Source of the DNA: Prevotella sp. UBA2754
GTDB lineage: Bacteria > Bacteroidota > Bacteroidia > Bacteroidales > Bacteroidaceae
DNA length: 64,000 nt
Reading direction: 5' to 3'
Assembly (NCBI GenBank): GCA_002353295.1
Contig: DEJG01000019.1
Span: 104,977-168,976, forward strand
The position numbers and the translations under genes are program-made. A model generated the notes under the pieces. That model was not told the DNA's origin and searched no databases. It was given only the letters and a program-made list of their open reading frames with translations. Shown piece by piece: positions 39,027 to 47,526 of this stretch (its first letter is position 1; the number at the start of each line of letters is the position of its first letter).

Positions 39027-39067
39027 TCTGACATAAATATAGATTAAATAACCAATAATTGAAAAAT

Positions 39068-39766
39068 ATGAAACAAGATGAAACATTCGTAAAGGGTGTA
39101 AATAATCCCTACGCACGTTCTCGTGGTGCACAACGCACAGGTAATGAAACTTATATTCCTGGGATGAATGACGTTTCACCAGGTAGTGCACCTTCACAAG
39201 CATCTCCTCAGGCAAAACCTAATACACCTGTTGTTGGATTCCTGTATTCCATTTCTCGTAAGGGAATAGGTGAGTACTGGCCTCTTCATCTGGGAACCAA
39301 TACTATCGGAAGAGCAGATGATTGTGATATCTGTTTAAAAGAAATGTCGGTGTCAAGTAAGCATGCAACCCTCAGCATTAAGCAGATGAAGAGCACCCAC
39401 AAACTTATTGCCAGTATTCGTGATACTGGGTCGAAAACGGGTATGTATCTGAATGACGAGGAGCTTGACTACGAGAATCATGCATGTAAGGCCAATGATA
39501 TTATTACGGTGGGAGCTAATTATAAGTTATTACTGATACTTATTGATGCTGAGGAATATGGCCTGTCGGTTTCTGATGAGTTTGTAGAAGATAAAGAAGT
39601 TGCTGATGATGGTTTTGACTATCAGACTCAGGGGCGTGGTGGTTTTGATGATGCCACTCATAATAATTTCCGTCCTTATAGTGCCGACCATCGTAATGTT
39701 GATACAGGAACTGTGGATCTGAGTGGTGCAGGTTTTGATGAACCAGGAGGAACAGAAATGATGTAA
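39068..39766 (+). CDS. Soluble FHA-domain protein with disordered N- and C-terminal tails
   Basis: TIGRADDCDI..VSSKHA..DTGSKTGMYLN. Confidence 0.88.
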   Translation: MKQDETFVKGVNNPYARSRGAQRTGNETYIPGMNDVSPGSAPSQASPQAKPNTPVVGFLYSISRKGIGEYWPLHLGTNTIGRADDCDICLKEMSVSSKHATLSIKQMKSTHKLIASIRDTGSKTGMYLNDEELDYENHACKANDIITVGANYKLLLILIDAEEYGLSVSDEFVEDKEVADDGFDYQTQGRGGFDDATHNNFRPYSADHRNVDTGTVDLSGAGFDEPGGTEMM

Positions 39767-39795: not shown

Positions 39796-41421
39796 ATGTC
39801 ATCTTTAATATATATACAAGGCGAGGAAGAGAAGAAAAACCATATCCATTATGAAGTTGATCCCTCACAGCCTTCTTTAGGTGAAGGTGGTATGGGGCAG
39901 GTATTGAAAGGAGTAAGGGTCAACGAGGCTAATGGTGTGCGTATGGATGTGGCCATTAAATTCTTGTTTGAAGACTTACCTGCACATGCAATTGAAAGGG
40001 CTAAGCGTGAAGCTTCTATTCAGATTCATAATGAGAATTTGGTGGAGATGTTTGGCTTTATAGAAGTCGTGGAGAATGCTCAAAGTGCACATCCAGTCAA
40101 GCGCTATCATGTAGTCAGTGAACTATTGCAGGGCGTCATGCTCTTTGACTTGCTGAATGGTAAAACTACGGATAAGAATGGTCTGGAAGTTCCTTTCGCT
40201 CAAGAATTATATAACAAATATCAGAATGATCGTTTTGGTTTTGCTGTATTTATTGTTAAGAATATCCTTTCAGGTTTAATGGCTCTTCATGATAAGGGTT
40301 ATATTCATCGCGATCTGGATCCCAGTAATATTATGATTACCACTGACCGTAAGGTGAAAATTATAGATTTCGGTATTGCCAAACGGCTCGACAATCTGAA
40401 TACGCAAGACCAGCAACTCACCAGTACTGGACAGTTTATCGGCAAGGCAGCCTATGCTGCACCGGAATTGGTTCTGGGTGATGTGCATAATCAGGATAAA
40501 ACAACAGACATTTACGCTGTTGGCATTATGCTCTTCCAGTTTATCACGGGCAGTTTGCCCTTTGATGGCACGATGGCCGAACTCATCAAGAAGCAACTTA
40601 ATGAGAAAATACCTCTTAAACTGATCCCATACAAAGCCGTGCGCAATATCGTGGCTAAGGCTACTGCTAAGAAACAGACTGACCGTTATCAGTCAGCTAC
40701 AGAGATGCGTGTAGATTTGGAGCATTTGTCGAAAACTGATGCAGTACCTTCTGCAACGAGTGCAGGAGAGATGGTTGCCAGTATTGCAGATGTGAAGAGT
40801 GGCAAGGGGAAACTGATTGGTATAATTGCTGCCGCAGTTGTAGTGATAGGTATCATTTTAGGTTTTGTCTTCGGTGGAGGTTCCGATGCTCCTGTAGCTG
40901 AAACTGCCAAGCCTCAACAACCTGCAGCCTTAACTGATGTTGCTCCAGATGCCGGCGCGCTGATAACTGACGCTATTAAGAAAATGTCAGATCCAAGCAC
41001 TGTGAATGAGGGTGTCAGATTGTTGACAGAGGTAGCAACGAAGTATGGTGACAAGAAAGAAGCTGCAGATGGTTTAGCCCTATTGGCTGCATTGATGCAA
41101 CCTGCAGACATTGAGAATACCACTCAACAGATTAAGACACTCCGTGAGGCTACAGCCAATGACATTTTCCGTGATGTCGATAAGGCTCATGCATACGCTG
41201 AGCAAGCAGTCAAAGCTAATCCAGAGAGTTATAAGGCACTCTATGAGTTGGCTACAGATTATTTGGGTGGTGAGGCCAGAATGAAAAAAGATCCTGATTT
41301 TCCAAAAGCTCAGCAACTGTTTACCAGTGGCTTGAAATATGCTCAAGACAGTGCAGACAAGGAGTATATCGATCTCTTTACCAGTCGTCTTGAATTGGTT
41401 AAAGGTTTGTTGGAGGAGTAA
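39796..41421 (+). CDS. Membrane Hanks-type Ser/Thr kinase with C-terminal helical (Sel1/TPR-like) domain
   Basis: GEGGMG, VAIK, HRDLDPSN, DFG, YAAPE; TM LIGIIAAAVVVIGIILGFVF. Confidence 0.92.
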   Translation: MSSLIYIQGEEEKKNHIHYEVDPSQPSLGEGGMGQVLKGVRVNEANGVRMDVAIKFLFEDLPAHAIERAKREASIQIHNENLVEMFGFIEVVENAQSAHPVKRYHVVSELLQGVMLFDLLNGKTTDKNGLEVPFAQELYNKYQNDRFGFAVFIVKNILSGLMALHDKGYIHRDLDPSNIMITTDRKVKIIDFGIAKRLDNLNTQDQQLTSTGQFIGKAAYAAPELVLGDVHNQDKTTDIYAVGIMLFQFITGSLPFDGTMAELIKKQLNEKIPLKLIPYKAVRNIVAKATAKKQTDRYQSATEMRVDLEHLSKTDAVPSATSAGEMVASIADVKSGKGKLIGIIAAAVVVIGIILGFVFGGGSDAPVAETAKPQQPAALTDVAPDAGALITDAIKKMSDPSTVNEGVRLLTEVATKYGDKKEAADGLALLAALMQPADIENTTQQIKTLREATANDIFRDVDKAHAYAEQAVKANPESYKALYELATDYLGGEARMKKDPDFPKAQQLFTSGLKYAQDSADKEYIDLFTSRLELVKGLLEE

Positions 41422-41438: not shown

Positions 41439-42356
41439 ATGCCGGGACAGGTCACCAAGAAGGGAAGCATCATCTATCTGAATGCCTATGGACAATGGTA
41501 TCAGTATGACGAATCGCAGGCTCCGTTAGGAGCAGGCGCCATGGGTGTGGTGTATCTCGGACAGCATTGTCAGACTCGTGAACCTGTAGCTGTTAAACGG
41601 GTGGTTGATCGCTATGCCAACATACCTGAGATTCGTCGCCGAGCCCATCAGGAGGCCGATCTGATGTTCAGTCATCCTAATTTAGTTGAAATGTTGGGTT
41701 GTTGTGAGGTTACTCCAGGACAGGGTCCCATCTTCATCATCAGTCGTTACGTGCGTGGTGAGAATATTGACAAGTTCATCAATGCCCATGTACGTTCACT
41801 CCCTAATGCAGAACACCGCATCTGCGAACTGTTCTTGCCTGTGCTTGATGCCTTGGCCTATATCCATACCAAAGGAATCATTCACATGGATATCAAACCC
41901 TCCAACATCATGATGGAGCAAGGACGTAATGTCCGACTGATGGACTTAGGTATTGCCGATGTGTCGGAAACTATCAACAGCTCTACGTCAGGCATGATGG
42001 GCACCCCGAAGTATGCAGCTCCAGAGCAGTTCTCCGATGTAGCCAGTAAACCGCAACTTACCTCGGCGACAGATATCTATGAGGCAGGAATTACGCTTTA
42101 TGAACTTATCACGAAGCAGAACCCTTTCTCTGCATCCACGGTAGCTGAATCCAAAGCACTTCATCATGGTATGATATTGCCAAAGGTGCAAAGTATCTCA
42201 GATACAGTTTTTGAGGTTACTCGCAAGGCCACAGCAATTCGTCCAGAAGACCGCTACCAAAGTGCCAATGAAATGAAGTCGGCTCTCAAAGAAGCCCTTC
42301 CACCTCGTAATTATACTAAGTTTGACCGTTTCCTTTCGGGAATATTTAAGAAATAA
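41439..42356 (+). CDS. Soluble Hanks-type Ser/Thr kinase (non-RD)
   Basis: GAGAMG, VAVK, HMDIKPSN, DLG, GTPKYAAPE; no TM. Confidence 0.92.
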   Translation: MPGQVTKKGSIIYLNAYGQWYQYDESQAPLGAGAMGVVYLGQHCQTREPVAVKRVVDRYANIPEIRRRAHQEADLMFSHPNLVEMLGCCEVTPGQGPIFIISRYVRGENIDKFINAHVRSLPNAEHRICELFLPVLDALAYIHTKGIIHMDIKPSNIMMEQGRNVRLMDLGIADVSETINSSTSGMMGTPKYAAPEQFSDVASKPQLTSATDIYEAGITLYELITKQNPFSASTVAESKALHHGMILPKVQSISDTVFEVTRKATAIRPEDRYQSANEMKSALKEALPPRNYTKFDRFLSGIFKK

Positions 42357-42364
42357 AAATCATT

Positions 42365-43765
42365 ATGAATGCAATAAAGACATCCTTGCCTTTTGCTGGC
42401 TTTTGGGATACCCGACAAGGAGGCCGCCCGGAGAATCAAGACTCCTGTGGCTTTATTGACACAGAAAAGGGACTCATAGCCGTGGTCTGCGATGGAATGG
42501 GCGGGGGGCCCGGTGGACAGTTGGCCTCCACGATCGCTGTTCAGAAGATTGTGGAGTATGTGGTCGGGGCTCCTCTAGATATGCCATATACGGATATGGT
42601 GGCTCAGGCTATAGAGTATGCCCATCAAGCTATATTGGCTAAAACTGCCGAGCAGCCAGCTCTGCGTGGTATGGGTTCTACAGCTACTGTAGTACTTATC
42701 AATCAACAATCGGCCATCATAGCTCATGTCGGTGATAGTCGCATCTACCAATTTCGTCGTGGTAAGATGATATTCCGTACGGCCGACCATTCGATGGTGG
42801 GTGACTTGGTGCGTAATGGTACATTGACGGAAGAGCAGGCCCGCCTGTCATCACAATCGAACATCATCACCAAAGCCTTAGGCAGCAAACTGTCCAACTT
42901 GGCTGAGGTGACGGAGCGTCCTTACGAGAAAGGCGATCGTTTTATGCTTTGTACAGATGGTATCTGGGGAGCTATGCCTGAACCCAACCTTGTTAAACGG
43001 GTAGCTAAGACTCCCTCTCTCTCTGGAGCCGTTGATAGCATGGTATTGACAGTTGAGGATATAGGGCGGAAGAGTGGTAACCATCACGACAATCTGACGA
43101 TAGCTTTATTAGAAACCAAACAAGATTCATTACTGAAAGAGAAAATGAGCAAGACAACATTACGTATTTTAATCGTGTTGGCAGTTATTTGCCTGCTGAG
43201 TGTTATTCTGAATATTGTGTTGATGACTCGACCTAATACTCCGATAAATAAGGAAGAAGTCGACAATATGGCATTGGAACTCGACAACCGAGGACAGCGC
43301 ATTCGAATCCTTGAAGACTCCATCAATGTCTTGTTAAATAATGTGGCAGGCGCTAAACAAGAGGCCGCAGATGCTACTTTGAAGGTGGCTAAGGAGAAAG
43401 AGGACGCTGCTGAGAAAGCAAAGAATGAGGCTGAGCAGAAGGCTCAGGAGGCCAAGGAAGCAGCAGACAAGGCGAAAGCTGCTGCTGATCAGGCAAAGGC
43501 TGCTGCAGAGTCCATCCAGAAGTCGCGCAATGATGTCATTGCCCAGCTAACTAAGATGAAGGATATGCAGGAGAGTGCCCAGCGCAAGCAGTTGCGTTCT
43601 AATGCTATAGAAACCTTGAAAACATTGGCGGCTAAAGATGTCAAGAACAAGGCGGTCTATGATGATGTTCGTGAGAAACTGGGCAACAAGGTGGCTTTAG
43701 AGAATACGGATATGAGTAAAGGTCATTATAGCATCCTCATCAAGAATCTTCAATCAATTAAATAA
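42365..43765 (+). CDS. PP2C/PPM Ser/Thr phosphatase with TM and Ala/Lys/Glu coiled coil
   Basis: RPENQD, VCDGMGG, HVGDSR, CTDG, DNLT; TM ILIVLAVICLLSVILNIVL. Confidence 0.92.
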   Translation: MNAIKTSLPFAGFWDTRQGGRPENQDSCGFIDTEKGLIAVVCDGMGGGPGGQLASTIAVQKIVEYVVGAPLDMPYTDMVAQAIEYAHQAILAKTAEQPALRGMGSTATVVLINQQSAIIAHVGDSRIYQFRRGKMIFRTADHSMVGDLVRNGTLTEEQARLSSQSNIITKALGSKLSNLAEVTERPYEKGDRFMLCTDGIWGAMPEPNLVKRVAKTPSLSGAVDSMVLTVEDIGRKSGNHHDNLTIALLETKQDSLLKEKMSKTTLRILIVLAVICLLSVILNIVLMTRPNTPINKEEVDNMALELDNRGQRIRILEDSINVLLNNVAGAKQEAADATLKVAKEKEDAAEKAKNEAEQKAQEAKEAADKAKAAADQAKAAAESIQKSRNDVIAQLTKMKDMQESAQRKQLRSNAIETLKTLAAKDVKNKAVYDDVREKLGNKVALENTDMSKGHYSILIKNLQSIK

Positions 43766-43774
43766 TATGTGCCT

Positions 43775-44497
43775 ATGAAGACAATCACTATAGGACGAGG
43801 CGAAGGATGCAATATCTACATCGACGACGAATCAATGAGCCGCCGTCATGCAATTATCAAGATTCCTACCTTTGGGGGTATGGAGATTGTGGACATGAGT
43901 AAGAACGGAACCTTTGTCAATGGGGTTCGCCTGCGTCCTAATGTGCCATTTCCCGTTAAACGTAAGGATGTTGTAAACTTTGCTGATGTCAGGGAGTTAG
44001 ACTGGTCATTGGTGCCCGATCCAATGAAATACTATAAACTGGCTGGCATTATTGTAGGTGGCATCATTGTACTATTATTGGCAGTCTTCCTCTTTAAGAA
44101 CCTGTTTAGCAGTTCAGCAAAAGCACCTGTTACCCCCGCTACTGAACATGTTCAAAAACCTATACGGATGGAAGAATATAAGAAACCTGCTCAGGCGGAA
44201 ACAGAACCTGTCGAAACACCTGCTGAAGAACAGCCGTCATCTCCACCTTCTGCTGCACCTGATGCTACAACAGGTACCGATAACCAGATCATTGATGTTT
44301 ATGGAGCAGCCCGCAGTGCTAAGAAAAAACGTGAGGCTGAGGAGCGTGTTCGTCGGCAGAAGGCCAAAGAAGTGCAGCGACAGAAAGAGCAACAAAAGAA
44401 AGAACAGCAACAAAAAGAGCAGCAAAAACAAGAGGAAAATAAGCAGCCTTCTGATGGAAATTCTTCTAAGAAAGAGTATAAACCCGAAATGATATAA
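43775..44497 (+). CDS. FHA-TM protein with Pro/Ala-rich and Gln/Lys/Glu-rich tail
   Basis: ITIGRGEGCNI..MSRRHA..SKNGTFVNG; TM LAGIIVGGIIVLLLAVFLF. Confidence 0.9.
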   Translation: MKTITIGRGEGCNIYIDDESMSRRHAIIKIPTFGGMEIVDMSKNGTFVNGVRLRPNVPFPVKRKDVVNFADVRELDWSLVPDPMKYYKLAGIIVGGIIVLLLAVFLFKNLFSSSAKAPVTPATEHVQKPIRMEEYKKPAQAETEPVETPAEEQPSSPPSAAPDATTGTDNQIIDVYGAARSAKKKREAEERVRRQKAKEVQRQKEQQKKEQQQKEQQKQEENKQPSDGNSSKKEYKPEMI

Positions 44498-44515: not shown

Positions 44516-46165
44516 ATGAGAATTATTAAGATTGGTAGTTCGCAATCATGCGACCTCGTATTGGATAGCCAGTACGTCAGCAGTCTACATGCTGAAATGA
44601 CAATTCTTGACGATGGGCAGATTATCCTTGAAGACAAGAACAGTAAGAATGGTACAACCGTAGGTAACAAGAAACTGGAACCAGGTCGTGAAACGAATGT
44701 ACAGCGTGGCGACCGTATTTCCTTTGCTGATGTACCTTTAGTCTGGGCCAAGGTGCCTGTAGCTGAAAAGTTGACGGCTTATAAGTCTGTCTATAACATC
44801 GGCTCTAACTATCGTAACGAGATTATTCTAAACAGCCAGACAGTCAGTCGTTTCCATGCCTCTGTACGTGTAGGTAAGGATGGTAAGGTGTATATCCATG
44901 ACAATGGCAGTCGAAACGGTACAATGGTCAACGGAGCGAAAATTGCCTCCAACAAGGATGTACGCATAAAGAAGGGTGATAATATCGTCTGTGGCACGGA
45001 GGATGTCACCGAACAGATTTTGGCAGTCATGCCTAAGACCAACACCACACTGATTTATGCTATTGCTGGTGCTGCCTGTCTGCTCGTCCTCATGGGTATC
45101 ATTTATGCCGTATGGCCTAAAGGTGGTGATGATCAACCTACAGCCTTTGTCAGCGACTCTACAGCTGTTGTTTCTTCTACTACTTCCAGTGTGTCACCAG
45201 AGAAATATCGCAATACAGTGGTTTACGTCGGGGCGCAGTATCATTATATAGCTGAGTTCGAAGATAACCCCATGCCTGACACTTGGAATGGCAAGATAGA
45301 AGATATTGCTGCACAGCAGCCATATAGTGCCACAGCTTTCTTCCTTGACCGTAAGGGATATTTAGGCACTAACAGACATGTGGCTGTTCCTTGGGAATAC
45401 CGTTCTGGTGAGGAAGACAATCGCGTACGCGAAAGCATTGAATACCGTATTGAACTGATGCGTCGTACATGTATGTTCATGCAGACAGGTGACGAACGCC
45501 TCACACAGAGTAATAAGGGGCGCGATTTCTCTATGCCCACGATGCAGGCTTTTGCCCAGACTGACTTGTTCAAGGCTATCAACGCTCATATCGGGAAGTA
45601 TCCTAATTGGCAGGCAGAACTGAATAAAGTAATCGACCGTCTTAATCGTTCGCGTTATTCTATCTCTGGGGCCATTGATTACATTATGGTAGGTTATGCA
45701 GGTCGCAACTATACGCATCTGGATGAATTCCAGCGTTGTGATGTTGTAGCTGATTCCAAGGATAAAGAAATTGATGTGGCGCTTTTGCAACTTAATGACA
45801 AAAAGACTCCTCAAGATGTTGAACAGGTATTCAGTCCTAGCAGTTTTTCTAATGATCGTCTGGTGCCTTTGAAGGATAAACTTTTCACAATCGGTTATCC
45901 CGCAGGTCTGTCTTGGGCACTTGACAAAAGAGCCAAATCGTTAGAACCCAGTATCAAGGAGACCAAGTGTAGCAAGGAACCAAGTAAGTATGATTTTGAA
46001 CTTCAGGAACAGTCTGTTGGTGGTAGTAGTGGCTCCCCCATCTTCAACGAGGCAGGCCAGTTGGTTGGTGTGTTATGGGGTGGAACAAGTATTGCCGGTG
46101 GATTCACCAAAGCAGTTCATGCTAAGTATCTGAAGAAAATTTATGATGAAGAAGCTGTACAGTAA
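44516..46165 (+). CDS. FHA-FHA-TM-trypsin-like serine protease fusion
   Basis: Two FHA-like repeats (VSSLHA..SKNGT; VSRFHA..SRNGT), TM, triad TNRHVA / IDVALL / GSSGSP. Confidence 0.88.
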   Translation: MRIIKIGSSQSCDLVLDSQYVSSLHAEMTILDDGQIILEDKNSKNGTTVGNKKLEPGRETNVQRGDRISFADVPLVWAKVPVAEKLTAYKSVYNIGSNYRNEIILNSQTVSRFHASVRVGKDGKVYIHDNGSRNGTMVNGAKIASNKDVRIKKGDNIVCGTEDVTEQILAVMPKTNTTLIYAIAGAACLLVLMGIIYAVWPKGGDDQPTAFVSDSTAVVSSTTSSVSPEKYRNTVVYVGAQYHYIAEFEDNPMPDTWNGKIEDIAAQQPYSATAFFLDRKGYLGTNRHVAVPWEYRSGEEDNRVRESIEYRIELMRRTCMFMQTGDERLTQSNKGRDFSMPTMQAFAQTDLFKAINAHIGKYPNWQAELNKVIDRLNRSRYSISGAIDYIMVGYAGRNYTHLDEFQRCDVVADSKDKEIDVALLQLNDKKTPQDVEQVFSPSSFSNDRLVPLKDKLFTIGYPAGLSWALDKRAKSLEPSIKETKCSKEPSKYDFELQEQSVGGSSGSPIFNEAGQLVGVLWGGTSIAGGFTKAVHAKYLKKIYDEEAVQ

Positions 46166-47526
46166 TGAACATTAGGAAAATTATCATATTATTAATAATG
46201 TGTCTTGCCCTGCCTATAGTGGGGCAAGCACAATCTGCTCACTGGGCCATTACACCCACCTATCAGTCTGTGACACCTTTTGCTCCTAATCTGTTCAAGG
46301 TGAAGACCTATGCGAGTGTAGGCATTTGTGATGCTGACGAGAAATGGGTGGTATCGTTGGCTATGGACTCTATCACTAATGTAGTTAATGGCTATGCCCT
46401 TGCACTCTCCAAGTCGAAAGACAAGTATCGTATTACCTATATTATTCGCGAGAATGGTACTCGTGAGGCTGTGAAAGATGAGGTGTACGCAGGCGAATAT
46501 CTTTTCTTTGAAGAAGGTCGTTGCCCGGTGACGAATAAAAAGGGAAAGTATGGTTATATCGATACTTCCGGTGCATTGGTTGTGGAGTGTGATTACACTT
46601 CTGCTCTTCCATTTCTCAACGGACGGGCTCTTGTAACGAAGGAAAAGGGCGGTTTTATCGGACTTCTGAAAAAAGGGAAAGCCAAAGTCTATGAAATAGA
46701 CCTTCAAGGCAAAGCCCGTGAGGTCAGCCAGATCGATCCTTCAGCACTGAAACCCAGTTATATGGAGAAGGTGAATGCGACCTACACACCGAATCCGGAT
46801 CCGTCTTATCAGCGTTATTCAGATGATAAGGAATATGGCTATAGAAAAGGAAACAATGTTATCCTCCCTGCTCAGTTTGAAGCTGCTGGCAGTGTTTCTG
46901 ATGATTGTGCCATCGTGATGGTCAACCATCTTTTTGGAGTCATCCGCTTCAATACTGCCGATGTTGATTGCAAAGTTACAGAGGCAGGTAGTCATCTAAA
47001 GGCGCAGGTTAAGCTTCCTGGTGTGTGGGAAAACAAAGTAGCCACCATTGTACGTGAAGTGAATGGTTCCTCTCGAAAAGAGTTTGAGATGGAGGGTACT
47101 GGACTGGAGCGTTCGCTTGATGTTACTATTGATAAAGAAAGTGGCAAGAAGATCTACGAATTAGTATGCGACAAACTGGTTCTTTGGCGTAGTGTCAACA
47201 AGGCTGGTAGTGGCAGCGACGACAATGATGATAAGGGCGATTCTTCTGGACGCATATCTGTCAGTGTTCCTGCTACCGTCAAGGCCAATGCCAAGAATGT
47301 TTGTTCTGTACCCGTTACAGTAAGGAACCGAGGCGGTTCTGCACGTACCATATCCATTAAGTTAAGTACTGGACAGAGCAGTTCCATCAATGTGGCTGCA
47401 GGAAAGTCGGGTACCGTAACCGTTAAAGTTCCTGTAACAAAGAATACAACATGTAGGATTACTGCATCAGGCGGTGGTTTCTCCAGTTCATGCTCCACTG
47501 CACTGAAAGCAGCCATTAGACTATAA
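46165..47526 (+). CDS. Secreted WG-repeat protein with C-terminal Ig-like beta domain
   Basis: Signal peptide, KKGKYGYIDTSG..ALPFLNGRA and EYGY..VILPAQFEAAGSVSDDCAIV repeats. Confidence 0.78.
   Translation: MNIRKIIILLIMCLALPIVGQAQSAHWAITPTYQSVTPFAPNLFKVKTYASVGICDADEKWVVSLAMDSITNVVNGYALALSKSKDKYRITYIIRENGTREAVKDEVYAGEYLFFEEGRCPVTNKKGKYGYIDTSGALVVECDYTSALPFLNGRALVTKEKGGFIGLLKKGKAKVYEIDLQGKAREVSQIDPSALKPSYMEKVNATYTPNPDPSYQRYSDDKEYGYRKGNNVILPAQFEAAGSVSDDCAIVMVNHLFGVIRFNTADVDCKVTEAGSHLKAQVKLPGVWENKVATIVREVNGSSRKEFEMEGTGLERSLDVTIDKESGKKIYELVCDKLVLWRSVNKAGSGSDDNDDKGDSSGRISVSVPATVKANAKNVCSVPVTVRNRGGSARTISIKLSTGQSSSINVAAGKSGTVTVKVPVTKNTTCRITASGGGFSSSCSTALKAAIRL

Follow-up and report, generated by a model that had tools for sequence, protein, structure and literature searches.

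An FHA-FHA-transmembrane-protease fusion of Prevotella in which both FHA domains lack the Gly-Arg arginine

Can a forkhead-associated (FHA) domain that has lost the Arg of its Gly-Arg (GR) motif still read a ligand, and what would it be doing on a membrane-anchored protease? The question is raised twice over by a single gene in a 64,000-nucleotide stretch of Prevotella sp. UBA2754 (assembly GCA_002353295.1, contig DEJG01000019.1, positions 104,977 to 168,976 of the forward strand), referred to here as the window. The gene, which we call FFP, runs uninterrupted from 44516 to 46165 and encodes two FHA domains, one transmembrane (TM) helix and an S1 protease domain. Both FHA domains read IGS (residues 6-8 in FHA1 and 95-97 in FHA2), so that Gly-Ser replaces Gly-Arg and the Arg conserved in the Pfam FHA family (PF00498) is absent from each.

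The Bacteroidales are the dominant bacteria of gut and rumen, and hardly any work exists on their Ser/Thr-kinase signalling. The FFP family physically ties a kinase/PP2C/FHA module to a protease of predicted periplasmic location, a tie that suggests a route for coupling intracellular phosphorylation with envelope proteolysis. FHA domains that lack the Arg yet are strongly constrained are moreover a natural experiment on what FHA ligand reading needs. Intermediates with Arg in both domains (R/R), Arg in FHA1 and Ser in FHA2 (R/S) and Ser in both (S/S) all occur in the family, so natural variants could tell whether the pocket has been remodelled or retired. Arg-less FHA domains are known, as are membrane-anchored periplasmic S1 proteases; what is new is their fusion together with the graded R/R to R/S to S/S series, and our literature search found no paper on an FHA-FHA-TM-protease architecture. 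The layout of FFP is as follows, with the basis of each assignment in brackets.

44516-46165, +: FFP gene (name used here), FHA-FHA-TM-S1 protease, 549 residues (open reading frame (ORF) list, Pfam, full-length AlphaFold2 (AF2) model)
44516-44740, +: FHA1, residues 1-75, cytoplasmic, with motifs G7-S8, S22-S23-L-H25 and S43-K44-N45-G46-T47 (Pfam, AF2)
44537-44539, +: Ser8 codon AGT, GR Arg position of FHA1 (codon read-out)
44780-45010, +: FHA2, residues 89-165, cytoplasmic, with motifs G96-S97, N98-Y-R100-N101, S111-R112-F-H114 and S132-R133-N134-G135-T136 (Pfam, AF2)
44804-44806, +: Ser97 codon TCT, GR Arg position of FHA2 (codon comparison with orthologues)
44813-44815, +: Arg100, position +3 from the lost Arg of FHA2 (Arg in 117 of 120 close homologues)
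44849-44851, +: Arg112, Ser+1 position of FHA2, equivalent to Rad53 Asn86 (family alignment)
44912-44914, +: Arg133, equivalent to Rad53 Thr106 in FHA2 (Lys or Arg in 95 of 120 close homologues)
45008-45010, +: Thr165 in EDVTEQI, a juxtamembrane pT-x-x-I-like motif, candidate phospho-acceptor only (alignment)
45044-45112, +: sole TM helix, residues 177-199 (hydropathy, AF2 helix, family comparison)
45113-45181, +: Ser/Thr-rich disordered linker, residues 200-222, with a D-S-T sequon at 214 (predicted local distance difference test (pLDDT) score below 50)
45191-46162, +: S1 (chymotrypsin-fold) protease domain, residues 226-549, predicted periplasmic (Pfam Trypsin_2 and Trypsin, 1wcz, Foldseek)
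45377-45379, +: catalytic His288, codon CAT, in LGTNRHVAV (120 of 120 homologues)
45407-45649, +: helical insert of about 80 residues (298-378) between catalytic His and Asp (AF2, pLDDT above 90)
45773-45775, +: catalytic Asp420, codon GAT, in KEIDVALLQL (120 of 120 homologues)
46028-46030, +: catalytic Ser505, codon AGT, in GGSSGSPIF (120 of 120 homologues)

Position and ancestry of the missing arginine

Pfam recognises two FHA stretches in FFP (116.3 bits against a cut-off of 20.7), and NCBIfam holds no specific model for the protein, every match lying under its cut-off. In the AF2 models a strand ends at G7 and at G96, while S22xxH25, S111xxH114, N45-G46 and N134-G135 each precede a strand. 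This agrees with the registration of the GR, SxxH and NG motifs described for the FHA fold (PMC3162421), which puts Ser8 and Ser97 where an FHA domain canonically has its Arg. Within the 2.88-Mb genome the deviation is confined to the two FHA domains of FFP: the other five read Gly-Arg, as TIGR in both accessory FHA proteins of the FFP operon and as IGR in three FHA domains elsewhere. A preliminary description, made from the letters of the window, had set the IGS of both repeats against an IGR in the two other FHA proteins, and that contrast is borne out.

The replacement is widely shared. Our homologue search returned 551 hits, and a library of 1.84 billion representatives yielded 156 clusters at E ≤1e-30. 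Among 120 close homologues (at least 43% identity to FFP; the FHA1 position could be scored in 117), the FHA1 position is Ser in 82, Asn in 21, Thr in 3, Arg in 6 and Lys in 5, and is thus non-basic in 106 of 117. The FHA2 position is Ser in 94 and Thr in 22, with four singletons (Ser/Thr in 116 of 120, non-basic in 119). The wider family set comprises FFP and 126 full-length FHA-FHA-TM-protease representatives of 50%-identity clusters, 127 rows in all. Here the states at the two positions (FHA1/FHA2) are R/R in 17 rows, K/R in 6, R/K in 14, R/S in 25, R/T in 16, S/S in 25, S/T in 8 and S/K in 6, with minor others, and the double-loss group to which FFP belongs makes up 38 of the 127. The preliminary description had proposed asking of homologues whether Gly-Ser is conserved: it is, within the orthologous clade, whereas in the wider family GR persists in FHA1 of 82 of the 127 representatives.

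A tree of the family was computed without the trait columns, and the minimum counts of state changes were repeated with 239 rows. Every basal clade is basic in both domains (Arg or Lys), and nearly all Arg losses fall inside one 97-row clade (support 96). On this tree GR (or GK) is therefore ancestral in both domains, and its loss is a derived trait of a lineage, not a defect. On the 127-row tree no fewer than 14 state changes are needed in FHA2 and 22 in FHA1; with 239 rows the numbers become 12 and 24, respectively. As reconstructed, the loss of the FHA2 Arg is early, basal to a large clade and essentially permanent, the position then holding Ser or Thr and rarely Lys, and the FHA1 Arg is lost later than that of FHA2, and repeatedly.

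The codons bear on how the change has been kept. Ser97 is encoded by TCT, TCC, TCG or TCA in close orthologues and by AGT or AGC in the operons L029-L031, while Thr (ACG or ACA) stands there in L027 and L032; judged by these codons, a small hydroxyl residue at position 97 is retained through synonymous and two-step codon changes. Ser8 (AGT/AGC) lies one base from the Arg codons CGT/CGC of the relatives L029-L031 and L056. Because Gly-Ser is kept in homologues and the Ser codons vary synonymously among orthologues, its presence in FFP is, by the alignments, neither chance nor sequencing error. Mean column conservation is highest in the FHA domains (0.77-0.80), intermediate in the protease barrels (0.67-0.73) and lowest in the helical insert (0.48), the least conserved part of the ectodomain. 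Both FHA domains retain SxxH and NG: in an alignment of 87 sequences with identities down to 25%, there is no variation at S22, H25, G46, S111, H114 or N134, and conservation of N45 and G135 is at least 90%. The lineage-specific Ser97 codon classes, the conservation of the FHA domains and the retention of SxxH and NG together point to a selected, lineage-specific remodelling rather than to decay or drift.

The closest relatives of FFP are found in rumen Prevotella genomes (76-88% identity). When genomes were sampled from the same Genome Taxonomy Database (GTDB) family, 23 of 201 matched the FFP family, as did 6 of 301 across the phylum; eleven other sampled genomes of the same genus gave one weak match only, to a different and larger protein. 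One contig labelled as a metagenome-assembled genome of an 'uncultured Staphylococcus sp.' (L055, CAYZFG010000026.1) carries a Bacteroidales-type FFP of 36% identity that reads MKLIKVGSSPSC; the contig is probably mis-binned or mislabelled.

Protease domain and membrane topology

The ectodomain of FFP displays the two-barrel fold and the His/Asp/Ser order of an S1 protease (H288/D420/S505), and the preliminary description had placed all three catalytic codons correctly. The Pfam Trypsin_2 match (PF13365) scores 42.6 bits against a cut-off of 27.6. The C-terminal barrel aligns to the V8 glutamyl endopeptidase (1wcz, E 3.5e-7), and Foldseek matches the ectodomain to Deg2, DegP, DegS, Deg1 and HtrA1 with probability 1.0 and target-normalised TM-scores up to 0.74. 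The full-length AF2 model, built on an 87-sequence alignment, has a pLDDT of 89.1 and shows the two-barrel protease with helices at 298-378. Behind the His helix comes a helical bundle of about 80 residues (298-378), so that His288 and Asp420 stand 132 residues apart (family range 64-141). The triad is kept in all 120 close homologues and intact in 124 of the 127 family representatives.

Several features suggest that the protease lies on the far side of the membrane from the FHA tandem. Hydropathy identifies a single strongly hydrophobic segment in FFP, residues 177-199, and exactly one TM segment is found in 241 of 242 family members. A folded N-terminal domain of 176 residues precedes it and has no signal peptide. 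Paralogues of the protease domain, insert included, carry lipoprotein signal peptides at three other loci (L002, ...LVLSSCSKK; L021, ...LALTGCKKD; L023, ...LAVSCGERK). Given the single TM segment, the absence of a signal peptide before the folded N-terminal domain, the lipoprotein paralogues and the DegS-like fold, and given that the chemistry of FHA domains, kinases and PP2C is cytoplasmic, the protease domain most probably lies outside the cytoplasm, in the periplasm. The earlier suggestion that the protease is probably active and lies beyond the TM helix is thus well supported by the invariant triad of the close homologues, the predicted topology, the paralogues and the DegS/DegP fold. As further periplasmic support we considered the D-S-T motif in the linker, a Bacteroidetes O-glycosylation sequon; it is weak, being present in only 23 of 120 homologues.

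The nearest known counterparts are the DegS/HtrA proteases (MEROPS S1C), which likewise combine a chymotrypsin-fold His/Asp/Ser protease with one TM anchor on its N-terminal side, sit in the inner membrane and face the periplasm; by analogy, regulated envelope proteolysis would be the likely role of FFP. The two differ in their regulatory modules, which in DegS/HtrA are periplasmic PDZ domains and in FFP would be the cytoplasmic FHA tandem. No PDZ domain is matched by Pfam in FFP, whose chain ends about 45 residues past the catalytic Ser and so lacks the C-terminal PDZ of HtrA/DegS, and FFP contains the His-Asp insert of about 80 residues. In sequence FFP is nearer to the V8-type (S1B) proteases. 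Staphylococcal V8 is the best sequence match of the C-terminal barrel among solved structures, the Asp and Ser regions included; however, the alignment covers only FFP 418-525, and V8 is a secreted, soluble enzyme that lacks a TM helix, FHA domains and the insert.

The protease domain with its insert also occurs apart from FHA domains. In L002, L003, L005, L006, L021 and L023 it forms small lipoproteins with a lipobox Cys after the signal peptide, and in L018 and L022 it stands at the C-terminus of open frames of some 780 residues or more, truncated by the locus edge, that contain Ig-like repeats and a TM helix. Two Cys residues of the ectodomain are nearly fixed in close homologues, Cys408 (45737-45739) in 120 of 120 and Cys485 (45968-45970) in 119 of 120; the Cys485 position is Ile or Val in most other clades, and the pair may form a clade-specific periplasmic disulfide. 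The three family members without an intact triad (P0145, P0147 and P0157) all fall within the clade that lacks the FHA1 Arg.

The phosphate pocket and what it may read

In Rad53 FHA1 the phosphate ligands are Arg70, Ser85, Asn86 and Thr106 (PMC5041073). In FHA2 of FFP the equivalents of the last three are S111 (Ser85), R112 (Asn86) and R133 (Thr106), with R100 additionally at +3 from the lost Arg. FHA1 has a pocket without Arg, in which Lys44 is the sole basic residue nearby. Reports on the Rad53 FHA1 R70A mutant differ: in one its affinity falls roughly 10-fold (PMC2615620), in the other it is unable to bind phosphorylated targets (PMC5041073). Since these reports differ and FHA2 has R112, R133 and R100 at its pocket, the equation of a missing Arg with a lack of phosphothreonine (pThr) binding is too strong; such a lack seems plausible for FHA1 and uncertain for FHA2. 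The modelled fold resembles that of binding-competent domains. The AF2 model of the FHA tandem (pLDDT 92.7, predicted template modelling score (pTM) 0.75) superimposes by Foldseek on CEP170, EmbR, GarA and MDC1 with root-mean-square deviations of 1.0-1.5 Å, and its best structural neighbours are the canonical pThr-binding FHA domains of Rad53 (FHA1), GarA, EmbR, MDC1 and DgcB. The linker between FHA1 and FHA2 is short and conserved in the FFP clade; together with the confident tandem model this suggests that the two domains form a fixed unit.

Across the family, basic residues accumulate around the FHA2 pocket where the GR Arg is gone. Of the 82 family representatives with an Arg-less FHA2, 80 have Arg at Ser+1, compared with a basic residue there in 25 of the 45 with a basic GR position. 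The corresponding counts of basic residues are 51 of 82 versus 6 of 45 at the +3 position and 42 of 82 versus 10 of 45 at the Thr106-equivalent. In FHA1 the Thr106-equivalent, K44 in FFP, is basic in 80 of 147 Arg-less and 6 of 92 Arg-bearing domains. These raw counts plausibly fit a relocation of positive charge within the pocket, which we treat as a lead and not a result, because tests on phylogenetically independent pairs were not significant and one sub-clade is short of basic residues (both detailed below).

The reading that we favour, with about even confidence, is that a remodelled pocket under selection, chiefly that of FHA2, still reads a ligand, that FHA1 is mainly structural, and that the tandem docks a DegS-like periplasmic protease to a kinase/PP2C complex. 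FFP would accordingly be a single-pass membrane protein with its N-terminus inside, the FHA tandem in the cytoplasm and a competent DegS/V8-like protease in the periplasm, and would serve as the protease subunit of a conserved Bacteroidales operon of Hanks kinases, PP2C and FHA proteins. Through Ser111, Arg112, Arg133 and Arg100, FHA2 may recognise a ligand that is phosphorylated or acidic, and do so with a changed geometry or affinity, and FHA1, left with Lys44, may be mainly a structural or phospho-independent partner. Docking of the tandem to the kinase/PP2C/FHA-TM complex could then couple the phosphorylation state of the cytoplasm with proteolysis in the periplasm, where possible targets are the WG-repeat protein encoded next to FFP or the ectodomains of its partners. 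A more specific form of the idea, which we hold only tentatively and consider rather improbable, is that FHA2, and partly FHA1, is a charge-relocated pocket: the guanidinium would have moved from the GR loop between strands 3 and 4 to the Ser+1, Thr106-equivalent and +3 positions, giving a distinct recognition of pThr or of an acidic mimic and letting cytoplasmic Thr phosphorylation control a periplasmic protease. If true, charge relocation would give gut and rumen Bacteroidales a DegS-like switch that works from the inside out.

Several observations weigh against this picture of a ligand-reading pocket that governs an active periplasmic enzyme. The association of Arg loss with other basic pocket residues is not significant in phylogenetically independent pairs: for the Thr106-equivalent of FHA1 about 4 independent pairs change in the same direction against 0.4 in the other (median p 0.13-0.22), and the covariation tests for FHA2 are underpowered, with too few independent transitions. 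The sub-clade P0060-P0090 combines S8 and L44 in FHA1 with Ser at the Ser+1 position of FHA2, and thus has fewer basic pocket residues. The positive-inside rule leaves the orientation undecided, with 2.10 Lys/Arg in the N-terminal flank of the TM helix and 1.98 in the C-terminal flank. The triad is lost in three of the 127 representatives, P0145, P0147 and P0157, where CDV, RDV and SDC replace HDS; by sequence these are pseudo-proteases, and catalysis is not always required in the family.

Both FHA domains might alternatively be purely phospho-independent scaffolds that tether or oligomerise the protease, in the manner of the type III secretion system (T3SS) protein SctD (MxiG), an account that we regard as the main rival, possible though doubtful, and that corresponds to the phospho-independent oligomerisation suggested in the preliminary description. 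It would explain why the GR Arg is absent from both domains, why the FHA1 pocket is without Arg, and why the state of the FHA1 Arg position changes no fewer than 22 times across the family, as if the residue were dispensable, and it sits well with the short conserved linker and the tandem pTM, which suggest a fixed structural unit. Precedents exist: MxiG and YscD, described as single-pass inner-membrane proteins, carry a cytoplasmic FHA fold on a membrane-spanning protein as FFP does, MxiG-N fails to bind pThr, and the Arg is also missing from FHA-2 of Cpn0172/CdsD (PMC3162421). FFP also matches the Pfam Yop-YscD_cpl profile of SctD (PF16697; 63.7 bits against a cut-off of 33.2, overlapping the stronger PF00498 match). 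However, SxxH and NG are invariant in the FFP family and kept in full, unlike in MxiG, the loops around the pocket are its most conserved parts, FHA2 has Arg at two of the Rad53 phosphate-ligand positions, the FFP gene always stands beside kinases and PP2C, and the best structural matches are canonical pThr binders. FFP moreover differs from SctD in having a protease as ectodomain in place of a ring-building domain, and its neighbours are kinases, PP2C, FHA and WG-repeat proteins, with no secretion-system context. Among the best sequence and structure matches of the FFP FHA domains is Chlamydia trachomatis CT664 (PDB 3gqs), which with VGS, SISRQHA and GSKNG has the same set of GS, S-R and S-K-N-G motifs as FHA2 of FFP; our literature search found no ligand-binding data for CT664. 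That the FHA domains are instead decaying remnants, or FFP a pseudogene or annotation artefact, is barely conceivable: both domains have indeed lost the residue considered the most critical for pThr binding, yet the frame is intact, homologues number in the hundreds, no part of the protein is better conserved than the FHA domains, synonymous variation is seen in the Ser codons, and the models are confident.

Two further accounts look beyond the pocket. FFP could be mainly a kinase substrate, its cytoplasmic part being phosphorylated, for example at Thr165, and read by the GR-type FHA proteins of the operon; this account, the second option of the preliminary description and compatible with the others, we think unlikely as the principal one. 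T165-E-Q-I fits a pT-x-x-I/L motif, whose first position holds Thr in 93% of close homologues and Ser in 7%. The module is also flanked by two canonical FHA proteins, and an FHA-TM gene always lies directly upstream. Against this, T165 is conserved only in the double-loss clade, most other members having Asp or Asn there, which could point to an acidic mimic or simply to a structural position, and the residue is predicted to lie in a short helix packed after the last FHA2 strand. Far less probable is a role of the operon in anti-phage defence or another conflict, in which the protease would be the effector. The distribution is patchy (23 of 201 same-family genomes), and PADLOC reports PD-T4-6/mad6 models for the kinases and RT-Protease_XI for the protease tail; these PADLOC matches, however, reflect generic kinase and trypsin-domain similarity, the putative effector domain would point into the periplasm, the envelope is spanned by four of the seven proteins, and no nuclease, NTPase or other defence hallmark is adjacent.

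The kinase/PP2C/FHA operon

In the window FFP is the sixth gene of a co-directional set, whose other members are listed below.

39059-39766, +: soluble FHA protein, TIGR (first of the co-directional set)
39796-41421, +: TM Ser/Thr kinase (ORF list, Pfam)
41439-42356, +: soluble kinase (ORF list, Pfam)
42365-43765, +: TM PP2C phosphatase (ORF list, Pfam)
43769-44497, +: FHA-TM protein with canonical GR (TIGR), ending 18 nucleotides before FFP
46165-47526, +: secreted WG-repeat protein (ORF list, Pfam)

The FFP stop codon and the ATG of the WG-repeat gene overlap in TAATG (46163-46167), an arrangement that suggests translational coupling of the two genes. The stretches compared fall into two operon types. 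Type A (the window and L027-L032) has the order FHA, TM Ser/Thr kinase, Ser/Thr kinase, PP2C, FHA-TM, FFP and WG-repeat protein, with Arg-less forms of FFP; the FHA-TM gene lies directly upstream of FFP in all type-A operons, and the WG gene was found only in them. Type B (L033-L040) has the order FFP, FHA, PP2C, Ser/Thr kinase, FHA and large Ser/Thr kinase, with GR or GK in both domains of FFP.

Extra canonical FHA proteins present only in the Arg-less clade would have indicated subfunctionalisation. This was rejected, as operons of both types carry two accessory FHA proteins. The GR Arg position of these proteins is Arg in 22, Lys in 2 and Gln in 2, and a handover of pThr reading to additional FHA proteins is not supported because both types have them and almost all read GR. 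The soluble FHA protein at the head of two type-A operons reads TIGQ for TIGR (L029:4310-5095 and L031:15040-15792), which shows that accessory FHA proteins, too, can lose the Arg.

Co-encoding of a kinase, a PP2C and FHA readers, several of them membrane-spanning, recalls the actinobacterial FhaA-FhaB-PstP-PknA-PknB set and the PpkA-PppA-Fha1 module of type VI secretion systems. The FHA domains of those modules differ from those of FFP in keeping GR and acting as pThr readers, and none of them is fused to a periplasmic protease.

Some type-A operons are followed by a second downstream module made up of FHA-TM, PP2C and a WG-repeat protein, in some cases with a kinase (L029:12120-17915, L030:12565-16431 and L031:3938-7553), which resembles a partial duplication of the signalling set.

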